Virus record (IMG/VR): IMGVR_UViG_3300048919_000084 | Span: 1-51,807 of that record | From: a virus | Direction: 5' to 3' (one strand) | Length of the DNA stretch: 51,807 nt | In this document: positions 7,320 through 51,577 of the stretch, one piece after another | Layout: each line of letters opens with the position of its first letter | Numbering within the stretch: position 1 is the stretch's first letter | The notes under the pieces: model-generated | Told to the model about the DNA's origin: nothing | The model's database searches: none | What the model saw: only the letters and a program-made list of their open reading frames with translations | Program-made: the position numbers and the translations under genes

Positions 7320-7347
7320 TTGATTGCTTAACAAAAAATGCTATCAT
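7320..7347 (+). promoter_or_regulatory. promoter TTGATT-16-(TGc)TATCAT ahead of the major capsid gene
   Basis: TTGATT at 7320-7325, TG at 7339-7340, TATCAT at 7342-7347. Confidence 0.5.
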
Positions 7348-22223: not shown

Positions 22224-22232
22224 TGGTAGACT
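22224..22232 (+). promoter_or_regulatory. extended -10-like TGgTAGACT ahead of the tail fibre gene
   Basis: Overlaps the minus-strand TATAGT of E16 face to face. Confidence 0.25.
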
Positions 22233-22272
22233 ATACATCAACCAAAATTTGGGTTTTAACAAAAAGTGCTAA
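22230..22272 (-). promoter_or_regulatory. marbox-type promoter cassette E16 (drives the lipoprotein gene)
   Basis: Minus strand reads TTAGCACTTTTTGTTAAAAC, 17 bp, TATAGT. 12/14 marbox positions. ATG 48 nt downstream. Confidence 0.55.
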
Positions 22273-25387: not shown

Positions 25388-25447
25388 TTTGAGTCTCCTT
25401 TGAAAGTGAGGGCAATTATATCATCTGCCCTCACAATTTATTAGCTT

Positions 25448-26476
25448 TTAGTGCTGTTGAAAAATGTCTTTATGCTGGAACTTAACAAAGTCAGGGGTTG
25501 GCAGCTTAACAGATGGCGCGTTGTTTTCGTATCCTGGCCACACATCAGCCGCCTGGCATGCGTTGAACTGGTGGATTACGCTCACGTACTGCTTGCGGCC
25601 CAACTGAATTTGCTCATCATCAAAAATGAATCCCATCGGCAAGAAAGGCTCTTTTTTCTCTTGAGCGAGCAGCTGAACGATGATGGGGCAAGTTTCTTTG
25701 AATGCTGCTTTAAACAGGTCTCGCTGCAGCGCCATTTTCAAGTAGTAACCAAAGTTATAAGCGTGGCGTCCGAATTCGGATGGCTTTACGCTCTGAGTGG
25801 TCTTGTAATCGGTTATAACTACAACTTCATCATAATGCACGCCATCAATAACGACGTCATACAGCTTGTCTACGTGGTCAATACGGACCTTAACTTTTAC
25901 GCCAAAAATTACGCCAAAAATTGAGATTTCACGTTGAGCAGTTTGGCTGTTGATGATGGCTGCGTGCTCAGGGATATTTAGCAGAGTTGCACGCATAGCG
26001 ATGCACTTATCGTAATCTTCACCTTTTACAAGCTCAACGCCATCACGGCGAGCCTCTGATTCCTGAATCTGTTCAATTAGCCACATAACATTAAGGTCGA
26101 TTTCATTTTTAACCATCATTTCAATCAGATCTGGATACTGCTTGCCTGACGTACCAATCAGGCCACAGGCTTTCAGCTTCGATGCCAGTGCGGTTTGTGA
26201 CGTTATTGCATCCTTGATCTCATCGGCAACGGCAGCGCGGCGATAGGTTGAGTTGAATCGCTCAATCTCAAGCATGATCGTGTGCGACTGAGTACCAAAC
26301 TCCAGAGCCTTTCCTGGTTCTCGAACTGCAAATCGCCATGCAGCCGGGCAGGTTGAGTAGATATCTGAAAGGCTCGATCCTGAAACGTACTCAGCACACC
26401 ATGAGTCTTTGCTGTGATACTCATCGTTTGAAAGCTGGTCATTGGTAAAGATTTTGAACTCTGAATTAGTGTTCAT
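25448..26476 (-). CDS. PD-(D/E)XK (RecB/Cas4-like) exonuclease
   Basis: IDHVD...VVITDYKTT nuclease motif. Start taken at the ATG 8 nt after GGAG (26476), not the track start. Confidence 0.7.
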   Translation of the reverse strand: MNTNSEFKIFTNDQLSNDEYHSKDSWCAEYVSGSSLSDIYSTCPAAWRFAVREPGKALEFGTQSHTIMLEIERFNSTYRRAAVADEIKDAITSQTALASKLKACGLIGTSGKQYPDLIEMMVKNEIDLNVMWLIEQIQESEARRDGVELVKGEDYDKCIAMRATLLNIPEHAAIINSQTAQREISIFGVIFGVKVKVRIDHVDKLYDVVIDGVHYDEVVVITDYKTTQSVKPSEFGRHAYNFGYYLKMALQRDLFKAAFKETCPIIVQLLAQEKKEPFLPMGFIFDDEQIQLGRKQYVSVIHQFNACQAADVWPGYENNAPSVKLPTPDFVKFQHKDIFQQH

Positions 26477-26505: not shown

Positions 26506-26549
26506 ATACTACTTTCCAGCCAGGTCCATTGCAAGTCAAAAAGTGCTAT
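26506..26549 (-). promoter_or_regulatory. marbox-type promoter cassette E13 (recombination operon)
   Basis: ATAGCACTTTTTGACTTGCA, 18 bp, TAGTAT. The RE1 half is intact and the RE2 half is replaced by TTGACT (10/14). ATG 30 nt downstream. Confidence 0.5.
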
Positions 26550-28048: not shown

Positions 28049-28083
28049 TAAAAAAAAAGCCAGCCTACATAGTAGACCGGCTA
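28049..28083 (-). terminator. intrinsic terminator between the HTH gene and primase
   Basis: Minus strand agccggtc-tactatg-taggctggct hairpin followed by T9. Confidence 0.6.
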
Positions 28084-28113
28084 TAATCGCGAGCGTTAAC
28101 CAGAAAATGCTAT
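28069..28113 (-). promoter_or_regulatory. degenerate marbox-type cassette E17, with the -10-like TACTAT in the terminator loop
   Basis: ATAGCATTTTCTGGTTAACG, 19 bp, TACTAT. 11/14 marbox positions. Confidence 0.3.
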
Positions 28114-28533: not shown

Positions 28534-28578
28534 CCAGCACGATTAGTTAAAGATTGTGTATCAAGTGGATGCTATTAT
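28534..28578 (+). promoter_or_regulatory. marbox-type promoter cassette E14 (helicase operon)
   Basis: CCAGCACGATTAGTTAAAGA, 19 bp, (TGc)TATTAT. 12/14 marbox positions. ATG 37 nt downstream. Confidence 0.55.
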
Positions 28579-30630: not shown

Positions 30631-31052
30631 TTACAGATAAGGGGCAGTACCTAGAATTTTATGAACCTGACGATTCAGATCGTCGAAAGGAGTCTCCTCA
30701 CCAGATTGAGGCTTACACTCACCTTAAAATAAGCCATTCGGACTGGCTTAGCTGGCACACCAAAGGCGAGGGCTTGAAGTCAAAGGCTACAGCCATGATT
30801 GACCAGCAGGAGGGGCTGCTAAAGGGTGTTTCAGATCTGGTGATCTTGACTGGTTTTATTGGCTGCAAGTACCCTTTTGCAGCTATTGAGATGAAGCGAG
30901 TGAACAAGTCGGGGCCGGGAAAGGCAACGGCAGTAAGTAAGGAGCAAAAGGTTTTCCTTGGGCGCGTGCGCGAGATGGGTGGATTCTCTGCAGTTTGCTA
31001 CGGCTCAGACCAGTTCAAGGTGGCAATCGAATATATGGTTTCACAGCACTAA
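30627..31052 (+). CDS. VRR-NUC domain nuclease
   Basis: GVSDLVIL...AIEMKR...SKEQKVFLGRVREMGGFSAVCYG (D...ExK). GTG start overlaps the helicase stop. Confidence 0.8.
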   Translation: MITDKGQYLEFYEPDDSDRRKESPHQIEAYTHLKISHSDWLSWHTKGEGLKSKATAMIDQQEGLLKGVSDLVILTGFIGCKYPFAAIEMKRVNKSGPGKATAVSKEQKVFLGRVREMGGFSAVCYGSDQFKVAIEYMVSQH

Positions 31053-31086
31053 TTGCTAAACATGCCCGGATATATTCGGGCATTAT
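31043..31086 (+). promoter_or_regulatory. marbox-type promoter cassette E1
   Basis: ACAGCACTAATTGCTAAACA, 18 bp (hairpin GCCCG/CGGGC), CATTAT. 14/14 marbox positions. ATG 27 nt downstream. Confidence 0.65.
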
Positions 31087-31337: not shown

Positions 31338-32078
31338 ATGAAAGACGAAAACGATGTTCAAACAGAAGATGCATTCATTACCTTTGAAGAACTTGAGCGT
31401 CAGGATTTGGTTATTACATCTCTTGCAACTGGCGGTCATTACCAGGCAGTTAAACCAGCAACGTCACTTAAAGTTTCGGGCCGACGCTTCCTTGGAAGCA
31501 ACACGCCGGATGCAATCAAAGATTTATGGTCAACTCCGGGTGAGCTTGTAGATTTCATGGAAAATCGATACGGGCCATACGATCTTGATGCGGCAGCCAG
31601 CGCTAACAACGCAGTGTGCGAAAAGTTCTTTGACGAGAAAACAAACTGCCTTAAGCGTTGGTGGGGTAGCAAAAAGCACGTTTGGCTAAACCCACCATTC
31701 AGCAATCCGTTACCATTCGTTGAAAAGGCAGCGGAGCAGGCTCGAAACGGAAATCAGATTGATGTTCTTCTGAATGCTGACAGCTCAACCGCCTGGTTCC
31801 GGCTTGCGCAAATGAGAGCTTCTGAAATCATCTGGATTGTTGCCGATATTGATTATCACATCACTGATGATGAGGTGGTGATTGACACAGCCCACTCAGG
31901 CCGATTAGCTTTTACCAACGCTGACTCTGGCGAGGCTGTTTCCGGCAACAGCAAAGGTCAGGTTATGTTCATCTTCCGTGAAATGAAAGAGGGTGAGCAG
32001 CAGCAGACTCATTACATCTCGATTGGTGAAATTTGCCCATCGGTTAAAAATAAACGCAAACGCAAGGTATCACGTTAA
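31338..32078 (+). CDS. dam: DNA N6-adenine methyltransferase (phage Dam family)
   Basis: Catalytic motif VWLNPPFS. 246 aa. Confidence 0.8.
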   Translation: MKDENDVQTEDAFITFEELERQDLVITSLATGGHYQAVKPATSLKVSGRRFLGSNTPDAIKDLWSTPGELVDFMENRYGPYDLDAAASANNAVCEKFFDEKTNCLKRWWGSKKHVWLNPPFSNPLPFVEKAAEQARNGNQIDVLLNADSSTAWFRLAQMRASEIIWIVADIDYHITDDEVVIDTAHSGRLAFTNADSGEAVSGNSKGQVMFIFREMKEGEQQQTHYISIGEICPSVKNKRKRKVSR

Positions 32079-34594: not shown

Positions 34595-35157
34595 AAACGG
34601 TAATCATCCTCAACGGGCCTCCTGGGTGCGGAAAGGACACCATTCAGCGAGTTATGTCTCAACGCTATAACCTTGAATCACGCAGCATGAAAGAGCCAAT
34701 GTTTGATCTGGTTCGGGCCATGCTTGGCGAAACCATGTTCAAGCGATTTATGCTTGATTATGATGACCGGACGCAAAAGGAGTCTCCGCAGGAATACCTT
34801 GGCGGAAAGTCACCTAGACAGTTTATGATCTGGATTAGCGAGAGCGTAATCAAACCGCAGTTCGGAAAGCGGCATTTAGGCAACCTGGCGGCTGAAAAGC
34901 TGAAGGTTGAGAAGAGTACGGCAATCTTCAGTGATGGTGGATTCCCGGATGAAGTTGAGGCGATTGTCGAAGCTGGTTTTAAAGTGAAGCTAATCCGGCT
35001 GCATCGTGACGGCTTCACCTTTGACGGCGACTCACGTGATTACATCCATATCCCCCACCTCCTTGGTGGTTGGAATTATGCAGAGAAAGACGTGACACTT
35101 TGCGATGGTGAGATTTACCACGGCGTAAACCATGTTTACCGTGCCGCATTCGGATAG
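34591..35157 (+). CDS. P-loop kinase (T4 gp1 dNMP-kinase-like)
   Basis: Walker A LNGPPGCGKDT. 188 aa. ATGA-coupled to the phosphatase. Confidence 0.65.
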   Translation: MKTVIILNGPPGCGKDTIQRVMSQRYNLESRSMKEPMFDLVRAMLGETMFKRFMLDYDDRTQKESPQEYLGGKSPRQFMIWISESVIKPQFGKRHLGNLAAEKLKVEKSTAIFSDGGFPDEVEAIVEAGFKVKLIRLHRDGFTFDGDSRDYIHIPHLLGGWNYAEKDVTLCDGEIYHGVNHVYRAAFG

Positions 35158-35197
35158 CACCAATTGCTAAACAGGCCCGGATTATTCCGGGCATAAT
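35154..35197 (+). promoter_or_regulatory. marbox-type promoter cassette E2
   Basis: ATAGCACCAATTGCTAAACA, 18 bp (hairpin GCCCGG/CCGGGC), CATAAT. 14/14 marbox positions. The TAG of the box is the kinase stop codon. Confidence 0.65.
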
Positions 35198-39401: not shown

Positions 39402-39453
39402 CCGTTGTGTTGTTTGTGAAACAAATATACCCGCAACAGTGTGCGGGCGTTTG

Positions 39454-40158
39454 TCATTTCGTGCTGTTGGCTTCAAATACTGCGCGAGCAAAACCACGAG
39501 GTGTAAGGGATCGAATCAGCTTGGTTCGCTGGCTCTTACCTCCGAGATTTTTCCAGCCTGGATTGCTGTTTCCTGAATTTTGCACCGCCATAACATCCGG
39601 CATCACAAACCCATTACCAAACCAAAGGCAGGTTGTTTTCTGATATCCGTCACGGGCTGGGATAATGTCAGGAAATGCCGGGTGAACATCATCCTCAGAC
39701 AGGTAGCCACCATACTGGAAAGGCTGAAAGATAACGTCCGGCTTGCGCCACATTGACGACAGCTTGCCCACCGGATTCTCGATCATGTACGGGCAACCGA
39801 ATGAATCAGCAACAGACTCAGCAATCCTGCACACAGCAACAGCTTTCTCCTGGAATAGCGCATCAGCAACTGCCTTACTCGCCCAATGTCGTGAGCCAGC
39901 GTTAGTGATATCTGTACAGGGTGGAAAGGCAAACACCATGTCCGGGTGAGGAATTCCCGACTTTGCCAGGAAATGCATGAAGCCCGTGTCAATCCAGCAC
40001 TCAACGTAAGTGATGTTTGGATGCTCAATCCTGACCGGTTCATAACCTCCATGATCGCCAGAGGTTGCATTGAAGCAGTAACACTTATGGCCTGCTTCAG
40101 CCCAATCCTTCACCATGTAACCACTGCCGTCAAACAGGCTGTAAATTACTTTTTTCAT
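39454..40158 (-). CDS. C5-cytosine DNA methyltransferase-like protein
   Basis: Motif I LFDGSG, motif IV FPPCTD and motif VI MIENP, in canonical order. Confidence 0.6.
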   Translation of the reverse strand: MKKVIYSLFDGSGYMVKDWAEAGHKCYCFNATSGDHGGYEPVRIEHPNITYVECWIDTGFMHFLAKSGIPHPDMVFAFPPCTDITNAGSRHWASKAVADALFQEKAVAVCRIAESVADSFGCPYMIENPVGKLSSMWRKPDVIFQPFQYGGYLSEDDVHPAFPDIIPARDGYQKTTCLWFGNGFVMPDVMAVQNSGNSNPGWKNLGGKSQRTKLIRSLTPRGFARAVFEANSTK

Positions 40159-41469: not shown

Positions 41470-41514
41470 AGTATGCCCCATTGCATTGCTGAGTGGTTAG
41501 GCAAAAAGTGCTAT
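41470..41514 (-). promoter_or_regulatory. marbox-type promoter cassette E12
   Basis: ATAGCACTTTTTGCCTAACC, 19 bp, CATACT. 13/14 marbox positions. The TAG of the box is the stop of the peptidase gene. Confidence 0.6.
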
Positions 41515-41917: not shown

Positions 41918-41961
41918 AGCATAACGCCATTCATTCCTGATCGGTAGGCAAAAAGTGCTAT
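41918..41961 (-). promoter_or_regulatory. marbox-type promoter cassette E11
   Basis: ATAGCACTTTTTGCCTACCG, 18 bp, TATGCT. 12/14 marbox positions. ATG 30 nt downstream. Confidence 0.55.
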
Positions 41962-42250: not shown

Positions 42251-42719
42251 TTGTCCCATTTGTCCCATTTTCCTGCAATTTTGAGAGTGGGACAAATCGT
42301 GAAAATTTATCCTTATAAAGTAGTAACTTGCGAGCTTGTCCCAACTTGTCCCAAAAAGTGCGGAAAAAAATCCGGGGCACTTTTTAGTGCGAAATGGGAC
42401 ACGATTGGGACAAATATATCTCCCTTAAGTATATGATAATAAAGATTATTATTATTATATGTATATATACTCGTCCCATTTGTCCCATTATCTGCCCCGG
42501 AAATATGAGGGGTGGCATATTGTGGGGAGAAATCTGAATGATAATTCCGGGTTGTTCCGCGCACAAAATATATAAGGGGGGTGGAAAAATCCGGGGCACT
42601 TTTTGGGACAAGGCATTTTTGGGGGTGTCGGCATCTGATTTATAAGGAGTTTTTTGCTCAAATTTGTCCTTGGACAAAAATGTTGACCCAAAAGTTTGTC
42701 CCGGATACAATGGGACAAA
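42251..42719. repeat. non-coding island B: inverted copy of island A (GGGACAA/TTGTCCC array around an A+T-rich core)
   Basis: Boxes at 42251, 42260, 42289, 42336, 42346, 42386, 42397, 42472, 42480, 42605, 42696 and 42712. TTTGTCC-TT-GGACAAA at 42663-42678. The reverse complement of A aligns along its whole length. Confidence 0.85.
42683..42711 (+). promoter_or_regulatory. strong sigma70 promoter TTGACC-17-TACAAT (rightward early promoter)
   Basis: TTGACC at 42683-42688 and TACAAT at 42706-42711. The -10 lies between TTTGTCCC (42695-42702) and GGGACAAA (42712-42719). Confidence 0.7.
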
Positions 42720-42757
42720 TAAATCACAGACCATTGGCACAATAGAGGAAAAAATCC

Positions 42758-43207
42758 ATGCGTGAGAGTAAGTTAGCGTTCAGACACTTCCTGCAGCAGG
42801 CAGCAATGAAGCTCGCGGCGGGTGAAGTCGAAAAGATTGAGTTCAATGCACAGCAGATTAGCATTCGATATGAGGGCCTGGAAAACCCTCCTCAGCACTA
42901 TTTTCGCAATGCCATTAACTCGTACAAGCCGTTTAAGGATGCAGGCCATCTCTGCAAGGTCACAAAGCGCGGCGAGGATTACATGATTACCCTGGTCGAA
43001 GGTGGTCAGGCTTCAATCCGGCCCCGCAATGGATACAGCTCGAACGATATGAGTGACGTGATCGTGAAGGTGGTTCAGGCAGTGATGAGCGCGAAGGTTG
43101 ACGCATCACATCTGACCGGTAAGCAGGCGGAAGCATTCCAGGCTGGTGCTGATGCATATCGTGAGGCGCTGGCTGCAACTCTGGGGGAGATGACCAGTCA
43201 TGGCTAA
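42758..43207 (+). CDS. hypothetical protein (149 aa), first gene of the rightward operon
   Basis: RBS GAGGA. ORF track. Confidence 0.6.
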   Translation: MRESKLAFRHFLQQAAMKLAAGEVEKIEFNAQQISIRYEGLENPPQHYFRNAINSYKPFKDAGHLCKVTKRGEDYMITLVEGGQASIRPRNGYSSNDMSDVIVKVVQAVMSAKVDASHLTGKQAEAFQAGADAYREALAATLGEMTSHG

Positions 43208-43415
43208 AATCTACATTGACTCCACGACAGGGGAAATCCTTGAGAACGTGGTTGAGATTCGCGAGCAGGCCTCAAAGCCACGCGGGCGCATGGTGAAGGT
43301 TACGTGCGGCGCACCAGGTTGCACTAATCAGAAAGACGTGCGCCCGGCTGACCTGGCTCGTGGGTGGGGTAAGTTCTGCAGCAAATCATGCGCAATGAAA
43401 TCGAGGCAATCATGA
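43200..43415 (+). CDS. small Cys4 zinc-binding-like protein (71 aa)
   Basis: CGAPGC...CSKSC. Overlaps the upstream gene by 8 nt. Confidence 0.55.
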   Translation: MAKIYIDSTTGEILENVVEIREQASKPRGRMVKVTCGAPGCTNQKDVRPADLARGWGKFCSKSCAMKSRQS

Positions 43416-43615
43416 GTAATAAACCAGTATTTTGCCGCATCCGTAAAATCGGAGCACACAGCGCAATGAGTGCCATCCATGACGGTCGCATTTATATCAG
43501 ACTTAAAGGCAGGGGTTTTATCTCTGTTGAGGATAAGCCAGGAATTGCTGACTATGTTGCAAGCCAGGTTAAATACAACAAAGACCACTACTTTTATCTA
43601 AAATCTTCCAGTTAG
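43412..43615 (+). CDS. hypothetical protein (67 aa)
   Basis: ATGA overlap with the upstream stop. Confidence 0.5.
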   Translation: MSNKPVFCRIRKIGAHSAMSAIHDGRIYIRLKGRGFISVEDKPGIADYVASQVKYNKDHYFYLKSSS

Positions 43616-43655
43616 CACTTTTTGCTAAACACGCGGGAAAGGATTCCCGTATTAT
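43612..43655 (+). promoter_or_regulatory. marbox-type promoter cassette E3
   Basis: TTAGCACTTTTTGCTAAACA, 18 bp (hairpin CGGGA/TCCCG), TATTAT. 13/14 marbox positions. TAG is the upstream stop. Confidence 0.65.
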
Positions 43656-43702
43656 CTACTCATCGGCAGCAGACAGCAGCCACCAACCAGAGAGATAAAA
43701 AA

Positions 43703-43984
43703 ATGACTACAGCATTCAAAATTGCAGCACTGAACGCACTTTCCAAATCAAACAAATCAAGTGACATTCTGGCAGTTGCATCAATAAGAGTGCGCACCAA
43801 AGCGAAAGAGCTGAAAGTTGGCGATATCGTTAAAAACATCATCACCAAAGAATTCTATCCGGTTGCCAGCATCGACAAAGACAGCCTCTGCTACCTGGTT
43901 ACTCTCGACTGTTGCACATCAGTTGGTGGTAGCGCATTCACTATGGATCTGGTAGGCGATTTCGTTGACGTCTACGCCGCTTAA
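43703..43984 (+). CDS. hypothetical protein (93 aa)
   Basis: ATG after agagagataaaaa. The track TTG start lies inside the promoter box. Confidence 0.55.
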   Translation: MTTAFKIAALNALSKSNKSSDILAVASIRVRTKAKELKVGDIVKNIITKEFYPVASIDKDSLCYLVTLDCCTSVGGSAFTMDLVGDFVDVYAA

Positions 43985-44027
43985 TAGCACGAATTGCAAA
44001 ACCCGGATCGGATGGTTCGGGTATTAT
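43984..44027 (+). promoter_or_regulatory. marbox-type promoter cassette E4
   Basis: ATAGCACGAATTGCAAAACC, 18 bp (hairpin CCCGGA/TTCGGG), TATTAT. 13/14 marbox positions. Confidence 0.65.
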
Positions 44028-44065
44028 CTACTCATCGGCAGTAAAAACTAATCAAGGGGTATATC

Positions 44066-44203
44066 ATGTTCAAACTTTACGTTAAGCACTTCGGCTGTGA
44101 TTATGAGCTGGAGGATACATTCAACAGCAAAGCTGAGGCTGTATCTGCTGGTAAGTTCATGCTTTCCAATGTTCGCGGCGTAGTCAACTACCGCGTCGAA
44201 TAG
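44066..44203 (+). CDS. hypothetical mini-protein (45 aa)
   Basis: ATG 39 nt after the -10 box, RBS aagggg. Stop TAG is part of the next cassette. Confidence 0.4.
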   Translation: MFKLYVKHFGCDYELEDTFNSKAEAVSAGKFMLSNVRGVVNYRVE

Positions 44204-44243
44204 CACGAATTGCAAAACATCGCCCCGCTCAGTGGGGCATAAT
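44200..44243 (+). promoter_or_regulatory. marbox-type promoter cassette E5
   Basis: ATAGCACGAATTGCAAAACA, 18 bp (hairpin GCCCC/GGGGC), CATAAT. 13/14 marbox positions. Confidence 0.65.
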
Positions 44244-44273
44244 CACCACTGAAACAAGCAAAGAGAATTCACC

Positions 44274-44645
44274 ATGCAGCAGATCACCAATGCACTTGAG
44301 CTTTTCAATGCGGCAAATGATTATGGCGACAGCGTTACACCTAAAGATGTTCGTATTGAAAGCAGAAACCACGTCAACCACCATTTCATCAATCGCGCAC
44401 AGTTTATCGCAATGGACAGTGACGGGAAGGTGTACACATACGCACTGAACCCGGCAAGCCTTATCCATGGAGACAGCAAGGAAGGTGATTCGGTGGAGAT
44501 GGAGTGGGAGAATGACTATTGGTGTGCAATGAACGGAACCGTTGCTCGTTACATCGGCACACTCAAGGGGGAGCTTCGTGAACTAATAACCTCAAAGGCA
44601 GCATGCTTCCCAATCGACGACAACTTTTACCCGCTGGGGGAATGA
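44274..44645 (+). CDS. hypothetical protein (123 aa)
   Basis: ORF track. RBS agagaa. Confidence 0.6.
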   Translation: MQQITNALELFNAANDYGDSVTPKDVRIESRNHVNHHFINRAQFIAMDSDGKVYTYALNPASLIHGDSKEGDSVEMEWENDYWCAMNGTVARYIGTLKGELRELITSKAACFPIDDNFYPLGE

Positions 44646-44782
44646 TGAAAACTGTATGCACTTTTTGCGGTGGTTATGGTTGCCACCAAGAACTGGCTCA
44701 AGACTCGGAAGGAAGCGACTTTTGGGTTGAGGAGCAGTGTGAAGACTGCGAAGGAACAGGAGTGATTGACGATGAAGATTAA
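44642..44782 (+). CDS. 46-aa mini-protein with two DnaJ-type CxxCxGxG zinc-finger motifs
   Basis: CTFCGGYG and CEDCEGTG. ATGA overlap with the upstream gene. Confidence 0.5.
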   Translation: MMKTVCTFCGGYGCHQELAQDSEGSDFWVEEQCEDCEGTGVIDDED

Positions 44783-44951
44783 ACTGCATCGCGGTGATTT
44801 CGGTTGGTGGTTCGGCATATCAACTAAATTCAAGCGCGGCATGATGTGGAACCGATGCAGCATTGTGTATGACGGTTGCAGAATGCATGCGCTATGGGTT
44901 CTTGGTGTTGGCTTCCAGTTGTGGGAAGCAGGAAAGGACGGCGAAGTATGA
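44772..44951 (+). CDS. hypothetical protein (59 aa)
   Basis: ATG 9 nt after GGAG. Overlaps the previous ORF by 11 nt. Confidence 0.4.
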   Translation: MKIKLHRGDFGWWFGISTKFKRGMMWNRCSIVYDGCRMHALWVLGVGFQLWEAGKDGEV

Positions 44952-45052
44952 AACATGACTCGCACTACAAAGCCTGGATGATACGCCGCATGGTGGATGC
45001 ATTCCTGTACCATAAGGCGCGGGAGGGGCTTGAGAAGATAATGACCCGATAG
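44948..45052 (+). CDS. hypothetical mini-protein (34 aa)
   Basis: ATGA overlap. Stop TAG embedded in cassette E6. Confidence 0.35.
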   Translation: MKHDSHYKAWMIRRMVDAFLYHKAREGLEKIMTR

Positions 45053-45092
45053 CACTTTTTGCAAAACGCCGCCTGACGTAATCAGGCATAAT
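45049..45092 (+). promoter_or_regulatory. marbox-type promoter cassette E6
   Basis: ATAGCACTTTTTGCAAAACG, 18 bp (hairpin GCCTGA/TCAGGC), CATAAT. 13/14 marbox positions. Confidence 0.65.
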
Positions 45093-45121
45093 TAACACTC
45101 AATCAAAAACGGAGCGGTAAA

Positions 45122-45595
45122 ATGAAAATCAAGGTTAATTTCGGTTTCTGGGATGTGGTTCAATTTCTCCTGAACTGCGCGATCTCAATGCAGACAGGTG
45201 CGCTTGTCGGTAAGATGGTTGTCAGGAGCTTGGAGGGTAGCGGAGCGCCACCAATGGTAACGCTGCTCACCTCTCTGCTGGCAATACTGGCGACAGTGAT
45301 TATCACGGCGAAAGCGCTTTTCAGTTTCGATGCATGGATTAATTCCTTTGTCGAAAGCAAGCGGGGCCGCAAGTACCGAATCCAGATCCTAAACATCCCG
45401 CAAGCATGGTCAATCTGGTTGGTCGATAAGAGCACGACAAACAAGAGCGCATTCAGCGAGGCTGAAGGTTATGGGGTGTTTGGGATCGGGTTCTTCAAGC
45501 ATAAATATGGTGACAAGCTGTTTAATGTTTGCCGCCGAACGCACTTCACAGCTTACCGCTTCTGGCGCTTCTCGGTAGAGATTGGCAAGCGATAG
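45122..45595 (+). CDS. membrane protein (157 aa)
   Basis: Two or three hydrophobic helices (VVQFLLNCAISMQTGALVG; PMVTLLTSLLAILATVIITA). Confidence 0.6.
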   Translation: MKIKVNFGFWDVVQFLLNCAISMQTGALVGKMVVRSLEGSGAPPMVTLLTSLLAILATVIITAKALFSFDAWINSFVESKRGRKYRIQILNIPQAWSIWLVDKSTTNKSAFSEAEGYGVFGIGFFKHKYGDKLFNVCRRTHFTAYRFWRFSVEIGKR

Positions 45596-45635
45596 CACGA
45601 ATTGTTAAACGTGCCCGGCTAATGTCGGGTATTAT
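45592..45635 (+). promoter_or_regulatory. marbox-type promoter cassette E7
   Basis: ATAGCACGAATTGTTAAACG, 18 bp (hairpin CCCGG/TCGGG), TATTAT. 14/14 marbox positions. Confidence 0.65.
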
Positions 45636-45664
45636 TTTATCTCAACCAATCAGGAGTAATGACC

Positions 45665-46198
45665 ATGCAAAAACTGAATGAATTGTTAGAGCAAGCAACG
45701 GAAATTTCCGCCACTCACGGCAGCGAATGGAGCAGCGCACTTTCTCAGGATAAATACGGGAATCAAGCGCACGAGATAATCTGCGATAGCCACGGTGAAA
45801 CTGTAGTTTCAACTGGCAGCAACTCAAATGATGCATCATGGCTTTGTGACTACCTGGAACTTTGCAGCCCACACAATATTCTCGCCATTGCCAAAGAATT
45901 CAGTGCGATGGAGAAGCAGCGTGACGCGCTGGCGGCTGAGAATGTTGCTATGAAGCGTAGCCTTAAAGTTATCGCCTCATCAGAGCAATTGGACGGGGAG
46001 ACTGTTGTGTGCGACTTCGACTCACTTGTATCTGTAGCTGCCGGAGCAGTCAAAACCCCAGCCACCGACACCCACCTGAACTCTGTGCGTGAGAGCTTTT
46101 TGGATGAGGCAATCCATGCACTCGTTGCATCTGGAGCGCAAAGTTTTGGTGATTGCATGGTCGCATTAAACCAACTCCGCGCAGGAGAGCCATCATGA
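45665..46198 (+). CDS. hypothetical protein, paralogue of 46437..47123 (possibly ead/Ea22-like)
   Basis: MQKLNELLEQATEIS...NILAIAKEFSAMEKQ parallels MKELNELFELAKEIS...NILAISEAFRALEQR. Confidence 0.6.
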   Translation: MQKLNELLEQATEISATHGSEWSSALSQDKYGNQAHEIICDSHGETVVSTGSNSNDASWLCDYLELCSPHNILAIAKEFSAMEKQRDALAAENVAMKRSLKVIASSEQLDGETVVCDFDSLVSVAAGAVKTPATDTHLNSVRESFLDEAIHALVASGAQSFGDCMVALNQLRAGEPS

Positions 46199-46437
46199 CA
46201 AGCGAAGAGAAGCAGGCGCTGATTAAGTTTGCTGAAAGCGTTTTGGCTAACTATGAAAGCGGCAGTTATATGGCTGGTACAAAAAGCGAATCGTTAATTC
46301 GAATCGCACTCGCCACCCTCACCGCGCAGCCGGTTAAATGCCAATCTTTTGACGACTATAAACCACACGCTGCGGAAGAGCTTCGTGCCGCATTTATCGC
46401 GGCCATCCGTGCAACAGGCTATGAGGTACAGGAATAA
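46195..46437 (+). CDS. hypothetical protein (80 aa)
   Basis: ATGA overlap. RBS AGGAG 8 nt upstream. Confidence 0.55.
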   Translation: MTSEEKQALIKFAESVLANYESGSYMAGTKSESLIRIALATLTAQPVKCQSFDDYKPHAAEELRAAFIAAIRATGYEVQE

Positions 46438-47123
46438 TGAAAGAGCTGAATGAATTATTTGAGCTGGCGAAAGAAATCAGTTCCAAGCAATGGTTTCTTA
46501 ATGCCGATGAAGAAGTAATCGCGGTCGATAATGATGCGGGGCCGGATGATTCAGGTGAGGCTTTTATCGGATGTGCTGCCAACATTCAGTTGGCAAATTA
46601 TATTGCGGCTGCATCGCCTGAAAACATCCTCGCCATTTCCGAAGCATTCCGGGCGCTGGAGCAGCGAGCAGAAGCAGCAGAGGCTGAGTGCTCAAGACTG
46701 AATCGAGAGTCGCAAAACCTCAGCAGCCAGCTTGGGCAATGTGACCGCGAACGGCGTGTGGCTTTGTCGAAGCTGGCAGGGCTGGTGAAGCAGAAGCCGG
46801 TTGGAACTGTCAGCATCGCTATGGATTGGAACACTCACCGTAATGTTGCGACAGTTAATATGCGCCCTGATCTTGTGGTGTCAGAAATGAAAGACGGTGA
46901 TGAACTATTCACCCGCCCCGCGCCCGCCGTCAGCCTGGCTGAGCTGGTGCCGGATGAATCAGCACTAGCAGATAAGCATATTGAGTGGTTAAGCACTCTA
47001 CAGCGACCAATGTTCTCTGATGAAGATTGGGAAGAGTTAACACTCTATACATGGCTGGCTTTCAGGGACTCTGCAAGGGTTCAACGCGCTGAGATTCTGC
47101 GCAACATTGAGGAGTCAAAATGA
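46437..47123 (+). CDS. hypothetical protein, paralogue of 45665..46198
   Basis: Shared N-terminal and coiled-coil blocks (see 45665). Confidence 0.6.
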   Translation: MKELNELFELAKEISSKQWFLNADEEVIAVDNDAGPDDSGEAFIGCAANIQLANYIAAASPENILAISEAFRALEQRAEAAEAECSRLNRESQNLSSQLGQCDRERRVALSKLAGLVKQKPVGTVSIAMDWNTHRNVATVNMRPDLVVSEMKDGDELFTRPAPAVSLAELVPDESALADKHIEWLSTLQRPMFSDEDWEELTLYTWLAFRDSARVQRAEILRNIEESK

Positions 47124-47458
47124 AAATCGGAACACTTACAACTCAGACTATGGAATCCGGCTCAATGCAGGATGACAAAACCTACAACCTTTATATTCAG
47201 GTTGAATCAATTCCATTTATGTTTGTTCGTGATGAGGGTGGGGTGATTTTAACAGATCAGCTTTCATCAGCTGGAATTCATTTCAGAATGGACCAGTCAA
47301 TGCAATATGACGGCGTGCCGGTTTTAATTACGGGATTAATGTCAGGGGCTGCGATTGTTGTTGTTCAGGAAAAGATGGAGTGGCACTCCTCGCCTGATGT
47401 TGGTGACAAGATGTGGATTAACTTAGATGACCCATACCTGAAATACACTGGAGAATAA
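47120..47458 (+). CDS. hypothetical protein (112 aa)
   Basis: ATGA overlap. Confidence 0.55.
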   Translation: MKIGTLTTQTMESGSMQDDKTYNLYIQVESIPFMFVRDEGGVILTDQLSSAGIHFRMDQSMQYDGVPVLITGLMSGAAIVVVQEKMEWHSSPDVGDKMWINLDDPYLKYTGE

Positions 47459-47460
47459 TC

Positions 47461-47688
47461 ATGCGTCGCCACCAGGTAACATGCACATGCCAGGCTTACG
47501 AGTTCCCTCACAGATTTGGTGGCGGAGCTTGCAGCGGCATGTCAGTAGTTGAGTCTGCCATTGGTGGCGAGCACTGCCAGTCATGCCACCTGCTAAACGG
47601 TGGTTGCGAAGTTCTCAAAGGTCAGGAGCATCCGAGAGAATGCCCTGCTGTCCAGGATTTCATTCAGTATTGGGAAATAAAGCTATAG
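47461..47688 (+). CDS. Cys/His-rich small protein (75 aa)
   Basis: CTCQAYEFPH...C...HCQSCH...C. Confidence 0.55.
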   Translation: MRRHQVTCTCQAYEFPHRFGGGACSGMSVVESAIGGEHCQSCHLLNGGCEVLKGQEHPRECPAVQDFIQYWEIKL

Positions 47689-47728
47689 CACTTTTTGCAA
47701 AACATGCCCGCCGCCGTGCGGGTATTAT
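47685..47728 (+). promoter_or_regulatory. marbox-type promoter cassette E8
   Basis: ATAGCACTTTTTGCAAAACA, 18 bp (hairpin CCCGC/GCGGG), TATTAT. 13/14 marbox positions. Confidence 0.65.
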
Positions 47729-47759
47729 TCTATCAACGCAAACAAATGGAGATTAACCA

Positions 47760-48086
47760 ATGCCAAAACGCAAAGCATTCATTCGCCTCCTGGGTCCAAG
47801 CATTTACAGTGACTCAGCGATAACCAACCTGAATTACCCCATCGTGGTTCAGGCTGAAATTTGCGATATTCTCACTCATCACGCTCACGTGCCGGGTCGA
47901 GTCATGCGAAAGATGTTGGGTTGGGGTTTCTGGGCGGACAGCCTCATCTGGTTCAACCCGATGTATGATGGTGACGGAGAGGTGAGTTGGGAGGAGGTTG
48001 AGATCAATCCATTCACAGCTTGGAACAACCTCAAATCATCGCGAGATGTTGGCGCAATGCCTGCTACGCTCGACGTAATCCGATAA
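47760..48086 (+). CDS. hypothetical protein (108 aa)
   Basis: ORF track. RBS tggaga. Confidence 0.55.
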   Translation: MPKRKAFIRLLGPSIYSDSAITNLNYPIVVQAEICDILTHHAHVPGRVMRKMLGWGFWADSLIWFNPMYDGDGEVSWEEVEINPFTAWNNLKSSRDVGAMPATLDVIR

Positions 48087-48162
48087 GGCGATAAATCACC
48101 AAGGCAAAATATGCACCTCTTAGAATGTCTTTGAGGTGCCTTAAATTAAGGCGAAAAACGCA

Positions 48163-48471
48163 ATGAAATTGAAAGTGACTAAATCTGAGCATCCATCATT
48201 CAAAAAGGGTGATGTTGTCGAGGCAAACAATCCTCAATGGCTGGACAATAAGTACATAATCTCCGGGGTGGGTAACTGGACATTCTTTGCCAATAGAAGC
48301 GGTAACAGATTCTCCATCGGTGGCAAGTTTGGCGATCCTATCGTTAACCTGGTGCCAGTTAAACCTGAGCTGTCCGATTATGAAAAGGCAAAGCGTCGTG
48401 ACATGTGGATTGAGATCGGCGTAGTTGCAGTTGCATCAATCATCCTTCTGGTTGCGGGGTTTATGAAATGA
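48163..48471 (+). CDS. hypothetical protein with C-terminal TMD (102 aa)
   Basis: C-terminal IEIGVVAVASIILLVAGF. Confidence 0.55.
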   Translation: MKLKVTKSEHPSFKKGDVVEANNPQWLDNKYIISGVGNWTFFANRSGNRFSIGGKFGDPIVNLVPVKPELSDYEKAKRRDMWIEIGVVAVASIILLVAGFMK

Positions 48472-48869
48472 AACCATTAAATCTGCGTTGCGTTATAGCG
48501 CCAACTAGATACGACATGCCGGAAGAGCTGGGAGAGCAGGTTCGCGCCAGCTTCCGTGTCGGAAAAACATACCTTGCCTATCTGGTAACTGACAAGCCGG
48601 AGGGTTGGGAGCCGACCTGGACGCTTAGTCACTTCAATATGCCTTTCAGCGTGTTGCGTGATAAGAATAAGCATTACTATTACACTCCTGGAATACCTGG
48701 CCTTTGGTTCTGTGATAAGCCATCTCCTCTTGAAGTTCGCGACACGCGACGTAATTCGGATTGGTATAAGCTGCAGGATAAGCGGGTTGTGCGTCGAATG
48801 CATCGACAGATGGCAAAGACATTTGCTGGTGCAACAGACCTTAAAACAGCCAGAAATCACAAGCGCTAA
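48468..48869 (+). CDS. hypothetical basic protein (133 aa)
   Basis: ATGA overlap. Confidence 0.55.
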   Translation: MKPLNLRCVIAPTRYDMPEELGEQVRASFRVGKTYLAYLVTDKPEGWEPTWTLSHFNMPFSVLRDKNKHYYYTPGIPGLWFCDKPSPLEVRDTRRNSDWYKLQDKRVVRRMHRQMAKTFAGATDLKTARNHKR

Positions 48870-48871
48870 TA

Positions 48872-48900
48872 AAAAAGCCTCCATTGCGGAGGCTTTGTCG
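48872..48900. terminator. bidirectional terminator between convergent genes
   Basis: aaagcctcc-attg-cggaggcttt. Confidence 0.7.
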
Positions 48901-48901
48901 T

Positions 48902-49147
48902 TTATTGGGCTGGAACAGATGCGTAAACAAACTCACCGGAGCCGCGCACCCAGGCGCTGGTGGTTGGAGAGATTGGGCCAATGATTTCACCCTGCTTGAA
49001 AGTGAATTCAGGATCACCAATTTCCGGGGCGGATGAACCGATGTGGACGCGAGCGTAACCATCCTTGGCCTGAGCGGTAACAACCCCAGAGCCGTCAGCA
49101 AATTTAAACCATGCGTCCGGGGCCAGATTCGTTTTTAGTGTAGCCAT
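48902..49147 (-). CDS. hypothetical small beta-rich protein (81 aa)
   Basis: ORF track. Follows the 293-aa gene by 6 nt. Confidence 0.55.
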   Translation of the reverse strand: MATLKTNLAPDAWFKFADGSGVVTAQAKDGYARVHIGSSAPEIGDPEFTFKQGEIIGPISPTTSAWVRGSGEFVYASVPAQ

Positions 49148-49153
49148 TTTGAT

Positions 49154-50035
49154 TTACTCCATTGTGATTTTTGTGATAAAGCGCTTTGACCAGTCAAGGC
49201 TCGTGACGGGGATTGTAATGTGTCCGTCTCTCGCCTGCAAACTTGCTGTACTGCCATCGCTGAACTCAACCAGAGCTGAGGCTGCCAGCGGCTCGTCAAT
49301 GTATGCAGACATTGCCACTCGCGAACCGTAAACCGGCGAGGTTGCGTTGCTCCCGATCTCAATCTGCGCCAGGCTATGACGGTACTGGTCGTTGCTTGAG
49401 GTGAATGGCAACCTGATACTTGAAAACGTCACATTGCCAGATGGGAACATGCCAGAGTAGTAGACATAGTTTGCCGAATCCTGGCGAGCCGTATAGAATC
49501 GACCCTGAGCTATCGGTTTGTTTGCTGGAATTGAACCCATCATGGAAATCCTTTCCCATCCACCCGTAAGCGCCTGAACATTCCAGGGGGTTGAGTCCGG
49601 CAGCAGCCACGCGCTCCCATCATAAACACCGCCCTTGCTGTAGTTCCGAACCGTCAATATAGATGGGCCTCCATCTATACCTCCAATTTGGTCCAGGCCG
49701 CCAAGACCTCCACCAACAAGCGTCCACTGGTCAGCAATTGCCGTCCCTGTCGTCTTGCTGAAATGGGGATCGAGAAGGTAGTTCTGAGTCGCCCTCTCTG
49801 GCTCGTGCCGCCCAACCGCAACTCCGTTACGGAACTCTAAAGGCCACTGGTTAGCTGCCGATTGCTTAAGTCGCCCATCCTGAGCAAGATACGCATGCGC
49901 CGGGGCGGATAGCACAACTCGCGGATCGAGTGATGCTGACATAAAATCAATGATGGGATTCTGCAGGCCGCCACCAGAGGCGGGGCGCAGGCCGAACATG
50001 TATGGATTCAAGATCCCAAATCTGTTACCTTTCAT
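49154..50035 (-). CDS. hypothetical protein (293 aa), fibre/lectin-like composition
   Basis: ATG at 50035, 8 nt after GGAG. Gly/Ser/Asn-rich sequence (WPLEFRNGVAVGRHEPERATQNYL...). Confidence 0.6.
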   Translation of the reverse strand: MKGNRFGILNPYMFGLRPASGGGLQNPIIDFMSASLDPRVVLSAPAHAYLAQDGRLKQSAANQWPLEFRNGVAVGRHEPERATQNYLLDPHFSKTTGTAIADQWTLVGGGLGGLDQIGGIDGGPSILTVRNYSKGGVYDGSAWLLPDSTPWNVQALTGGWERISMMGSIPANKPIAQGRFYTARQDSANYVYYSGMFPSGNVTFSSIRLPFTSSNDQYRHSLAQIEIGSNATSPVYGSRVAMSAYIDEPLAASALVEFSDGSTASLQARDGHITIPVTSLDWSKRFITKITME

Positions 50036-50062
50036 TGGTATTACTCCTCTATAAAGAGCGTG

Positions 50063-50071
50063 AATTATAGC
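50063..50071 (-). promoter_or_regulatory. extended -10 promoter TGcTATAAT for the leftward two-gene cassette
   Basis: Complement of aattATAGCAC, so it shares bases with the RE1 half of cassette E9. ATG 28 nt downstream. Confidence 0.5.
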
Positions 50072-50109
50072 ACTAATTGCTAAACGCCCGAAATACAAAA
50101 CATGCATAA
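50066..50109 (+). promoter_or_regulatory. marbox-type promoter cassette E9 (no hairpin)
   Basis: ATAGCACTAATTGCTAAACG, 18 bp, CATAAT. 14/14 marbox positions. ATG 36 nt downstream. Confidence 0.65.
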
Positions 50110-50144
50110 TCTAACCATCAACAACACAACCAAAGGATGTAAAA

Positions 50145-50759
50145 ATGAAACGATTTATTCCTCAAGGCGATAAGATTATCGTGACGGAGGCTAGTTTTAT
50201 CGCACCTCAGAATTCAGAAGGTTTTACCGCCAACCAGCGATATGACCTTTATTGCGTAAGTACAAGCCCCAAAATTCATCACGGATTTACTTCTTTCTTC
50301 AATCACAAAGAGGGCGATCCGGTTTATGGTCTGGCTGAAAATGATGACGGCGTTGAATTTCTAGTTGGCAACATTGATGCGAAGATAAATAGCCACGTAG
50401 GTCGCCGGTTATTCTCCGAGCTGGTGGTTTTTAATGTCGAATCATCATACGACAACCACCGCGCCCAAAAGAAATCTATGCGTTTCCGACACATGCTTAT
50501 CCGGGCTTTCGTTAAGCTGGGTTATAGCTACGGATGGTGCGACACCAAAAAGCGGGCAAGTTGCTTTACTATCAATCGTAAACGTGGTTATAAACATTCT
50601 ATCCACAACATCAATGAGTGGGCGCGACAGATGGCTTCACCTTACTTTACCGAAGATGGCTCACTTGATCGCCATTCATTCATGATCGGCACTCCAGATC
50701 ATGAAATTAATCAGGAGTTCTTTGATGAACTCGCCTATGAAGAATTAAGCAGCTGGTAA
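50145..50759 (+). CDS. hypothetical protein (204 aa)
   Basis: ORF track. RBS aaaggatg. Confidence 0.6.
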   Translation: MKRFIPQGDKIIVTEASFIAPQNSEGFTANQRYDLYCVSTSPKIHHGFTSFFNHKEGDPVYGLAENDDGVEFLVGNIDAKINSHVGRRLFSELVVFNVESSYDNHRAQKKSMRFRHMLIRAFVKLGYSYGWCDTKKRASCFTINRKRGYKHSIHNINEWARQMASPYFTEDGSLDRHSFMIGTPDHEINQEFFDELAYEELSSW

Positions 50760-50800
50760 GCACTAATTGCTAAAAGCCGGTCATTCAGATCGGCTATATT
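50757..50800 (+). promoter_or_regulatory. marbox-type promoter cassette E10
   Basis: TAAGCACTAATTGCTAAAAG, 18 bp (hairpin GCCG/CGGC), TATATT. 11/14 marbox positions. Confidence 0.55.
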
Positions 50801-50830: not shown

Positions 50831-51550
50831 ATGAAAACTGAAAATATGTGCGTAACCTTCCTTGGAAAAACAGATAACCAGCACACTAAAGGAAAGAGCT
50901 ATGCAGTCAAAAGCTGCATCAACACGCGGGATGGACATGAATTCCCGATTGAGCTTCTGATTGAAACTGATCTATCAAATGATTTTAAAAGAATCTGGAT
51001 GCCAGCCACGATGAAAAGCGGTGATAAGTCAATCTCAACCCTGTATGAATTGGTTGTTTTGCCCGGATACACCATCGGCGCTACAATGCAGATGGACGCC
51101 AACATTGCAAAGCCAGTGCTTGACAAGCAATTAAAAGAATCTGTTGAAAAAATTATTGCTGATTCCCTTTTCAAGCCTGTAGCTATCACTGGCGCGGGAT
51201 TTGAAATTGGTTGTTGTGAACAAACAGAAAACGGACTTATCAAGCAGCAAAATGAGGATGGGACAGTGAGTTACTTTTTAGATCCTGTTCACAGATCTCC
51301 ATTAAGTGAGCGAGGTGATCAATTAACTTCAGATGAAGTACTGATGGAGTTGCGTAACGTACTCCGCTGCCCTGATGGTGCAAATATCGTCATCTGGGCT
51401 GAAATCCTTGCTGCTGGCTACTTCGGTGAGAAGCATCGCAAAGGCGGGGCCATTGAGGACGCGATCCACTATAAGAAGATGGGCGCATATAGCGATGAGG
51501 CGCTGGGTAAAATCCTGGCGGCTATCGTGAACGATGGCACGAAAAGCTAA
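50831..51550 (+). CDS. hypothetical protein (239 aa)
   Basis: ORF track. RBS agagag. Confidence 0.6.
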   Translation: MKTENMCVTFLGKTDNQHTKGKSYAVKSCINTRDGHEFPIELLIETDLSNDFKRIWMPATMKSGDKSISTLYELVVLPGYTIGATMQMDANIAKPVLDKQLKESVEKIIADSLFKPVAITGAGFEIGCCEQTENGLIKQQNEDGTVSYFLDPVHRSPLSERGDQLTSDEVLMELRNVLRCPDGANIVIWAEILAAGYFGEKHRKGGAIEDAIHYKKMGAYSDEALGKILAAIVNDGTKS

Positions 51551-51577
51551 AACTCTCTGGTGGGGCTGCGCTATAGT
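51534..51577 (+). promoter_or_regulatory. marbox-type promoter cassette E15 (-10 in a hairpin loop)
   Basis: ATGGCACGAAAAGCTAAAAC, 18 bp, TATAGT. 13/14 marbox positions. GGGGCT/AGCCCC stem encloses the -10. Confidence 0.6.

Follow-up and report, generated by a model that had tools for sequence, protein, structure and literature searches.

The window analysed here is a 51,807-nucleotide stretch of viral DNA (IMG/VR virus record IMGVR_UViG_3300048919_000084, positions 1 to 51,807). It carries many copies of a short promoter cassette, in which a 20-bp box resembling the marbox, the binding site of the bacterial regulators MarA, SoxS and Rob, precedes a −10 hexamer at a nearly constant distance. 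The ends of the window (1–127 and 51681–51807) are identical over 127 nt, and the window therefore represents a closed genome of 51,680 bp; the terminal identity looks like an assembler overlap or circular permutation. Megablast places the window in the Drexlerviridae (T1-like phages), and the nearest record is Pantoea phage vB_PagS_AAS23 (hereafter AAS23), with ~75% identity across the structural genes and little elsewhere. AAS23 and T1 share the gene order of the window. The plus strand at 1.4–24 kb runs from terminase through tail fibre, and is followed by genes for recombination, primase, a regulator, helicase, dam methylase and lysis, by a leftward operon (41.9–36.8 kb), and then by a non-coding control region of 0.7 kb and a long series of small open reading frames (ORFs) that point rightward.

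The cassettes are given below with their box, the distance from the box to the −10 hexamer, the hexamer and, for part of them, the start codon. Fractions give the agreement with the marbox consensus AYnGCACnnWnnRYYAAAYn, and matrix scores refer to the chromatin immunoprecipitation (ChIP) matrix described further below.

22230..22272, minus strand: cassette of the Cor-like lipoprotein gene; box TTAGCACTTTTTGTTAAAAC, 17 bp, TATAGT.
25415..25457, minus strand: cassette of the Erf-type recombinase gene, unlisted earlier; box ACAGCACTAAAAGCTAATAA, 17 bp, TGaTATAAT.
26506..26549, minus strand: degenerate cassette (10/14) before the exonuclease VIII gene; box ATAGCACTTTTTGACTTGCA, 18 bp, TAGTAT.
28069..28113, minus strand: degenerate cassette (11/14) before the primase gene, overlapped by a full intrinsic terminator.
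28534..28578, plus strand: weaker cassette of the helicase gene; box CCAGCACGATTAGTTAAAGA, 19 bp, TGcTATTAT.
31043..31086, plus strand: box ACAGCACTAATTGCTAAACA (14/14), 18 bp with hairpin, CATTAT.
31673..31716, plus strand: intragenic box in the dam methylase gene; AAAGCACGTTTGGCTAAACC, 18 bp, TACCAT.
35154..35197, plus strand: box ATAGCACCAATTGCTAAACA (14/14), 18 bp with hairpin, CATAAT; precedes small ORFs and the lysis genes.
39424..39467, minus strand: cassette unlisted earlier; box ACAGCACGAAATGACAAACG, 18 bp with hairpin CCCGCA/TGCGGG, TATATT.
41470..41514, minus strand: cassette of the leftward early operon; box ATAGCACTTTTTGCCTAACC, 19 bp, CATACT.
41918..41961, minus strand: first promoter of the leftward operon; box ATAGCACTTTTTGCCTACCG, 18 bp, TATGCT.
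43612..43655, plus strand: box TTAGCACTTTTTGCTAAACA, 18-bp spacer with hairpin CGGGAA/TTCCCG, TATTAT, ATG at 43685; ChIP matrix score 17.5.
43984..44027, plus strand: box ATAGCACGAATTGCAAAACC, 18 bp, TATTAT, ATG at 44066; ChIP matrix score 16.3.
44200..44243, plus strand: box ATAGCACGAATTGCAAAACA, 18 bp with hairpin GCCCC/GGGGC, CATAAT, ATG at 44274.
45049..45092, plus strand: box ATAGCACTTTTTGCAAAACG with core GCACTTTTTGCAAAA, 18 bp with hairpin, CATAAT, ATG at 45122.
45592..45635, plus strand: box ATAGCACGAATTGTTAAACG (14/14), 18 bp with hairpin, TATTAT, ATG at 45659.
47685..47728, plus strand: box ATAGCACTTTTTGCAAAACA, 18 bp with hairpin, TATTAT, ATG at 47760.
50067..50110, plus strand: box ATAGCACTAATTGCTAAACG (14/14; core equal to the ChIP consensus), 18 bp without hairpin, CATAAT, ATG at 50145.
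50757..50800, plus strand: box TAAGCACTAATTGCTAAAAG, 18 bp with hairpin, TATATT, ATG at 50831.
51534..51577, plus strand: box ATGGCACGAAAAGCTAAAAC, 18 bp, TATAGT, with an inverted repeat GGGGCT/AGCCCC around the −10.

Matches to the box ATAGCACnWWTTGCWAAAC (up to three mismatches) number 16 in the window, against 0.31 expected, and none of 100 shuffles of the window reaches 16. A first-pass annotation made from the sequence had listed 17 copies. All are present, with a single slip of coordinate (50066 for 50067), and its tally against the consensus is reproduced (four at 14/14, seven at 13/14, three at 12/14, the rest at 11, 11 and 10), as are its gaps between box and −10 (18 bp in 13 copies, 19 bp in three and 17 bp in one). 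The arithmetic behind its figure of 0.025 expected 14/14 matches is correct. It had also placed a ribosome-binding site (RBS) and start codon 27–48 nt downstream of the −10; both signals are there, at a measured distance of 23–47 nt. Its list lacked the forward cassettes at 39467(−) and 25457(−), the intragenic box at 31673(+), and two reverse boxes in the late region at 7344(−) and 10237(−). Forward cassettes in the window total ~19. They serve the genes for helicase, recombination, primase and the Cor-like lipoprotein, as well as the small-ORF region and the leftward operon.

The cassette is shared by related phages. At least 13 copies are found in AAS23, ~20 in T1, 19 in the Enterobacter phage Ec_L1, ~11 in DTL (Braunvirinae) and at least 10 in Vc1 (Jhansiroadvirus), and orthologous cassette positions are kept across distant genera. 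Short-query BLAST finds the box in 645 phage records, nearly all of them 44–53 kb phages of Klebsiella, Escherichia, Shigella, Salmonella, Citrobacter, Enterobacter and Cronobacter. The dam-internal box and its −10-like hexamer are kept at the same place in AAS23 (29573) and T1 (39344); this site could be an internal promoter, or could be kept solely through the protein sequence.

Judged by sequence, the box matches two published definitions of the marbox, of which AYnGCACnnWnnRYYAAAYn was scored above. The other, the pattern GCAnnWWnTGnnAAA, defined from ChIP (PMC12052159), has 14 exact matches in the window, against 1.29 expected. Independently of these definitions, a matrix was built from 87 published ChIP-seq sites bound by MarA, SoxS, Rob or RamA (PMC10268841). 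The consensus of this matrix, GCACTAATTGCTAAA, recurs as the core of three boxes (31046, 50070 and 50760), which score 18.3 bits (best ChIP site, 18.2; ChIP median, 11.4). At a threshold of 16 bits or more, the window has 10 sites (0.3 expected), AAS23 eight (0.05 expected) and T1 15 (0 expected). The string TTTTGCTAAA, which the first-pass annotation had named as common to the box and the marRAB marbox, is indeed present in both, as the reverse complement of the E. coli K-12 mar site is ATGCCACGTTTTGCTAAATC. In addition, the core GCACTTTTTGCAAAA (45052 and 47688) is letter-identical to a Salmonella site bound by RamA and SoxS. This site, in Salmonella SL1344 (SL1344_2584), adjoins sites labelled gpP and cII in the ChIP table, and apparently lies in a prophage because its neighbours bear these labels, which suggests that marboxes on phage DNA may be more general.

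Profile, spacing and conservation counts were made on 62 cassettes from four phages, the window included. The information profile reads A1 T2 A3 G4 C5 A6 C7 k W W T T G Y T A A A m. Compared with the ChIP matrix in the forward register, the phage motif gives a column correlation of 0.84 and an information-content rank correlation of 0.80; the column correlation is at most 0.24 at other offsets and 0.55 for the reverse complement.

The position of the box relative to the core promoter is equally constant. The gap between the box and the −10 is 18 bp in 54 cassettes, 19 bp in five and 17 bp in three, and the orientation is the same in 62/62, with GCAC distal and AAA proximal to the −10. When the cassettes are aligned on the hexamer, A−11 and T−7 are present in 62/62, T−12 in 52/62 and G−14 in 53/62. 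A C–A pair lies 7 nt past the hexamer, at the predicted start (C−1 in 44/62, A+1 in 46/62), and the box therefore occupies −50 to −31, with its centre at about −41 from this predicted start. Best matches to a −35 hexamer with a 16–18 bp spacer reach 1–4 of six positions. TTGCTA or TTGCAA within the box was considered as a −35 and rejected, because its distance of 22 bp from the −10 is too long for use. The ATG lies 67–82 nt past the start of the box. Predicted transcripts open with a conserved A/C-rich leader (CATCGAAAC or CATCAAC) at +1 to +12, which is G-poor and extends to the RBS.

Class II promoters of the MarA, SoxS and Rob regulators have a forward marbox over the −35 region, near −41, with no recognisable −35 (1.9 matches on average) and a normal −10, and structures at micF show that sigma region 4 is displaced. 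E. coli micF, read directly, consists of ACAGCACTGAATGTCAAAAC, 18 bp, TAGAAT, 7 nt and the first base of MicF. The phage cassettes resemble micF of E. coli and Klebsiella, the class II archetype, in having an asymmetric 20-bp forward box, 18 bp to the −10 and no −35; the cassette at 31043, for example, reads ACAGCACTAATTGCTAAACA, 18 bp, CATTAT. In silico, the class II-like arrangement proposed in the first-pass annotation agrees with both micF and the literature: the box is forward, is centred at about −41 and lies 18 bp from the −10, and a −35 is absent.

The cassettes are probably class II promoters activated by host MarA, SoxS, Rob or RamA. Each would be a sigma-70 promoter without a −35, and its box would be a consensus forward site for these monomeric AraC-type activators, so that the bound activator would occupy the −35 position and recruit RNA polymerase. 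Rob would be the likeliest factor in unstressed cells because it is made constitutively, and MarA, SoxS and RamA would add to its effect under stress. Almost every early and accessory transcription unit, in this phage as in the rest of the Drexlerviridae, would be driven by cassettes of this kind. Binding of the host proteins and dependence of transcription on them are what we infer from motif and spacing. The identity with an independently derived host motif, together with the micF spacing, would be very unlikely to arise under an explanation without MarA-family proteins. Rob orthologues have at least 78% identity across Enterobacterales, one Erwiniaceae genome included, a range that matches the hosts of the box-bearing phages.

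Several observations weigh against activation by these host regulators. Within the box, A at position 3 and T at position 11 are near-invariant though both positions are free in the marbox consensus, and at position 19 the consensus Y is often replaced by A. Unstressed cells contain little MarA and SoxS, and most of their Rob is in inactive aggregates. Even so, plain broth supports good growth of T1-like phages. The classical mutants resistant to T1 have been mapped to fhuA and tonB and are not known to map to rob, mar or sox; any dependence on these regulators is probably partial or redundant. A TGn extended −10 is found in many T1 cassettes, which might be active in the absence of an activator. 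Vc1, with its at least 10 cassettes, is a Drexlerviridae phage listed on Vibrio cholerae; its cassettes may reflect a suitable MarA/Rob-type protein of Vibrio, a loose host label, or a box that is independent of enterobacterial regulators. In the literature searched, no transcription starts, binding, footprints, results in mutant hosts or Rob dependence were found for T1-like phages. Finally, a 5-bp dyad, TAGCA-N5-TGCTA, lies within the box and has its centre at −42, which is the position of cI at PRM, and a dimeric phage activator could sit there.

Such a phage-encoded activator, plausibly a dimeric helix-turn-helix protein, would bind the dyad and act in the manner of lambda cI on PRM or of Mu Mor on Pm, and the likeness to the marbox would then be coincidental or a case of mimicry. 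Where phages rely on the host polymerase, promoters that lack a −35 are commonly served by activators of the phage itself, and Vc1 keeps the cassettes on a host listed as Vibrio. At least four of the five palindromic pairs are kept in 48/62 boxes, but conservation of the box is asymmetric: G4 is present in 62/62 whereas its mirror C14 is present in 42/62, and C7, T11, A17 and A18, which are invariant or nearly so, break the dyad or fall outside it. The better fit to the ChIP matrix in forward than in reversed register and the constant orientation to the −10 also count against this reading. An unrelated protein would, moreover, need to have converged on a 15-nt asymmetric host optimum together with the micF spacing. 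On balance, a phage-encoded activator is unlikely.

The genes and sites that bear on the choice of binding protein are the following.

28110-28523, minus strand: Cro-like single helix-turn-helix regulator (phrog_2856).
42000-42750: non-coding control region of 0.7 kb between the divergent early operons.
42683..42711, plus strand: the only canonical sigma-70 promoter of the early region, TTGACC-17-TACAAT, within TTGTCCCA repeats.
43200-43415: 71-aa C4 zinc-ribbon protein (C36-x4-C41-x18-C60-x3-C64), in the operon of the canonical early promoter.

Six-frame searches of the window, AAS23, T1 and Ec_L1 for a MarA homologue (tblastn and phmmer --max) returned noise only, with best E values of 0.1–2, and Pfam found no HTH_18 domain in 40 non-structural ORFs; a phage-encoded MarA homologue was rejected on these grounds. 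A promoter for a phage RNA polymerase or sigma factor was likewise rejected, as neither the Pfam scans nor synteny with AAS23 and T1 reveal a gene of this kind. The authors of a re-annotation of phage TLS came to the same view (PMC11447400). As an alternative to host proteins, the first-pass annotation had suggested that the promoter at 42683 gives rise to a phage factor. The first product of this promoter, DUF7174, with just four relatives in a set of 1.8 billion proteins, occurs in AAS23 only, being absent from T1, Ec_L1 and DTL, and the second gene downstream differs between the window and AAS23. The zinc-ribbon protein is 84.5% identical to AAS23 41130-41342 and is matched partially in Ec_L1; T1 and DTL lack it. 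The products of the 42683 promoter are therefore unlikely to be the activator, because they are not conserved across the box-bearing phages, and the suggestion was dropped.

The phrog_2856 protein is the only regulator common to all five phages compared (window, AAS23, T1, DTL and Ec_L1), a point in favour of a phage-encoded activator. It has an invariant basic N-terminal arm (DKRxxNGNNGTRRGxDKKPRK). Its recognition helix, however, differs from phage to phage (HGAVRWW, KQTINAW, NQTVQGW, PQAVEEW, HATLYEW) while the box is unchanged. A more natural target for this regulator is the set of TTGTCCCA repeats that is specific to the window. The −10 of the phrog_2856 gene (TATAAT) overlaps, back to back, the TATTAT of the helicase cassette.

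The control region contains at least 15 TTGTCCCA/TGGGACAA repeats in both orientations, several of which overlap the canonical promoter at 42683-42711; the repeats are essentially absent from AAS23, T1, Ec_L1 and DTL. They may serve as operators for the Cro-like regulator that the phage encodes, or form a replication origin. Hybrids with half a marbox occur in the same part of the genome (42345-42361, 42374-42401, 42590-42611 and 41979-42027): the hybrid GGGGCACTTTTTGGGACAA, present with an inverted copy, is the GCACTTTTTG half of the box joined to the GGGACAA repeat. Three ATAGCAC...TTGAATAG units, 15 nt apart, lie just upstream of the leftward cassette.

The spacer between box and −10 is usually occupied by a G+C-rich hairpin. 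In 71% of cassettes, the segment from the end of the box to just past the −10 folds well below its shuffles (mean z −2.6). Stem sequences vary among cassettes, and a compensatory change separates the window (CCCGCA/TGCGGG at 39467) from its AAS23 orthologue (CCCGGA/TCCGGG); the spacer of the cassette at 47685 is identical to that of the AAS23 cassette at 45698. The upstream gene usually stops inside the box. TAG at box positions 2–4 is its stop codon in 22/62 cassettes, as at 43612, where the upstream ORF ends in this way, and other stop codons fall at box positions 1, 8, 11, 12 or 15; the fixed A3 may be due to this use of TAG as the upstream stop codon. Hairpin energy averages −12.0 kcal/mol where a co-directional gene ends upstream and −5.2 kcal/mol where none does (Mann–Whitney p = 1.5e-5), and the cassette at 50067, whose upstream gene is on the opposite strand, has no hairpin. 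A role of the hairpin in promoter recognition, as in N4-like promoters, was rejected because its strength tracks the upstream co-directional gene end. In a simple test for terminators, a number of hairpins qualify when the T-rich −10 is taken as the tail, the hairpin and TATTTTAT tail at 45592 scored as terminator-like, and the GenBank record of T1 labels the equivalent hairpins terminators. We conclude that the hairpin is a 3′-end element of the upstream gene (a terminator or RNA-end stabiliser) nested in the promoter spacer, where it fits because class II promoters put no sequence demands on the spacer. Rfam finds no known RNA family.

Some cassettes instead have an inverted repeat that flanks the −10: 51552-51590 and 25400-25437 (−) in the window, the latter with 9-bp arms (GTGAGGGCA/TGCCCTCAC; cassette 25457), and 2269, 3535, 4344 and 4864 in T1. 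The 3′ arm of these repeats stops at −1, just before the predicted +1 A, and no U-tract follows; the structure is not a standard terminator.

Because the cassettes lie at gene boundaries of the mosaic small-ORF region, often with the upstream gene ending inside them, a selfish or recombination repeat that has nothing to do with transcription, such as a miniature mobile element or the boundary of a module, was also considered. Against it, conservation is confined to the box, −10 and start site and leaves the spacer free to vary, the cassette is always directed at a gene with an RBS, and orthologous positions are kept. Terminal inverted repeats and target duplications are absent, and this explanation is highly improbable.

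The box had been seen before as a repeat. A 2024 re-annotation of TLS describes a 21-nt direct repeat, aaATAGCACnnnTTGnTAAAA, that is also found in T1, Rtp and Rogue1, is present in many copies, intergenic and oriented along with transcription, and lies ~76 nt before start codons (PMC11447400). The boxes of the window fit this description of TLS and T1, and the 21-nt repeat of TLS, T1, Rtp and Rogue1 is the same element as the window box; the TLS paper has neither the marbox, nor the fixed 18-bp link to a −10, nor the hairpins (PMC11447400). In the literature searched, no link is made between T1-like phages and marboxes, Rob, MarA or SoxS. The first-pass annotation knew of no description of marbox-driven phage promoters. 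As far as the literature searched goes, the identification as a marbox appears to be new, and the repeat itself is already published.

The TLS authors listed three sigma-70-like promoters only and offered a stoperator, an enhancer site or an UP element as possible roles for the repeat, without settling on one (PMC11447400). These ideas are in line with a broader alternative, in which the promoters run on the −10 or extended −10 alone and the box is a decoy that captures MarA, SoxS and Rob and so dampens the stress response of the host, or a roadblock, an insulator or a stoperator-like element separating transcription units. With ~20 consensus sites in each genome, and more as the genomes replicate, the regulators could be titrated, and the extended −10 elements of T1 noted above would suit promoters of this kind. 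Two T1 boxes (8362-8381 and 25021-25040) lie directly against the start codons of the terS gene and the ST33 tail gene; without room for a −10, they are not promoters of these genes, and they count for a role of the box apart from a promoter. A decoy or roadblock, however, has no need of the fixed orientation and the 18-bp spacing (54/62), and most cassettes of the window lack both a −35 and the TG at −15/−14, so that they should be weak without an activator. This alternative is therefore given a low probability, below that of a phage-encoded activator. An UP element, which is A+T-rich, has no fixed G or C and lies at −40 to −60, where the alpha subunit makes contact with it, was rejected: the box extends as far as −31, and its G4, C5, C7 and G13 vary little or not at all. 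An L5-type stoperator was rejected as well: synteny and Pfam reveal no repressor, integrase or lysogeny genes, and the sites are locked to the −10.

The reverse boxes of the late region include one in the promoter of the major capsid gene.

7320..7347, plus strand: sigma-70 promoter of the major capsid gene, TTGATT, N16, TGcTATCAT.

This promoter is the sole TG-extended match in the late region, and its spacer together with the first 3 nt of the −10 is the reverse complement of the box (7325-7344, minus strand). A reverse box is likewise found in the capsid promoter of AAS23 (5950-5969), T1 (15067-15086; TTGACG-N16-TATTAT) and Ec_L1 (30385-30404), and the capsid promoter of DTL is without it. 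In E. coli pbpG, a marbox in the promoter spacer leads to repression by MarA, SoxS and Rob (PMC12052159). The capsid promoter is like pbpG in that the box fills the spacer, and unlike it in that the phage box is reversed and extends into the −10; its effect is a prediction. By this analogy, the same host factor that activates the early units could hold back the capsid gene.

A wider scheme can be put forward tentatively, with more doubt than confidence. The whole Drexlerviridae family, coliphage T1 and the Klebsiella phages of therapeutic use among them, may have handed early promoter recognition to the host regulators MarA, SoxS, Rob and RamA, with the box in the capsid spacer as a repression site, so that one host protein would switch the early genes on and hold the capsid gene off. 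Replicating genomes, each with ~20 optimal sites, would then titrate this protein and flip the programme to late. Under this scheme, the efficiency of infection would follow the stress or resistance state of the host (for example bile salts, salicylate, oxidants, marR or ramR mutants).

If activation by MarA-family proteins holds, this would be the first case found of a virulent phage that uses a host stress and antibiotic-resistance regulon for its early programme. T1 is a founding model phage, and the repeats offer a handle on its unexplained transcription control; a two-decade puzzle of repeats would become testable with existing strains and proteins, and directly in T1. Clinical multidrug resistance is found in strains of Klebsiella, Enterobacter and E. 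coli that make MarA, RamA or SoxS in excess, and Drexlerviridae, Klebsiella phages especially, are common candidates for therapy. A link of resistance state, bile or drug exposure to phage gene expression would thus bear on phage–antibiotic combinations. The cassettes would also serve as compact, portable and inducible promoter–terminator modules.

Among known phage systems, mycobacteriophage L5 stoperators are similar in that many copies of an asymmetric site have one orientation relative to transcription. They differ in lying within transcribed regions and serving the repressor of a temperate phage, whereas the sites in the window are tied to a −10 in a genome without lysogeny genes. Lambda cI at PRM, Mu Mor and T4 MotA/AsiA are similar in that an activator site takes the place of the −35 at many phage promoters and defines a temporal class. 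In those cases the activators are phage proteins, and the sites of cI and Mor are symmetric; in the window, no conserved candidate of fixed specificity is found. A T4 MotA-type middle promoter was rejected specifically, since the MotA box lies at −30 and TGCTAAA near −36, and Pfam finds no MotA or AsiA. The class II promoters of the host are also close, and here too there are differences. Host marboxes are degenerate (median 11 bits), whereas the phage boxes stand at the motif optimum (16–18 bits). The phage promoters occur in ~19 copies within 52 kb of a virulent phage genome. A3 and T11 are also fixed in the phage boxes. Lastly, the phage spacer, unlike that of host class II promoters, usually holds a hairpin.

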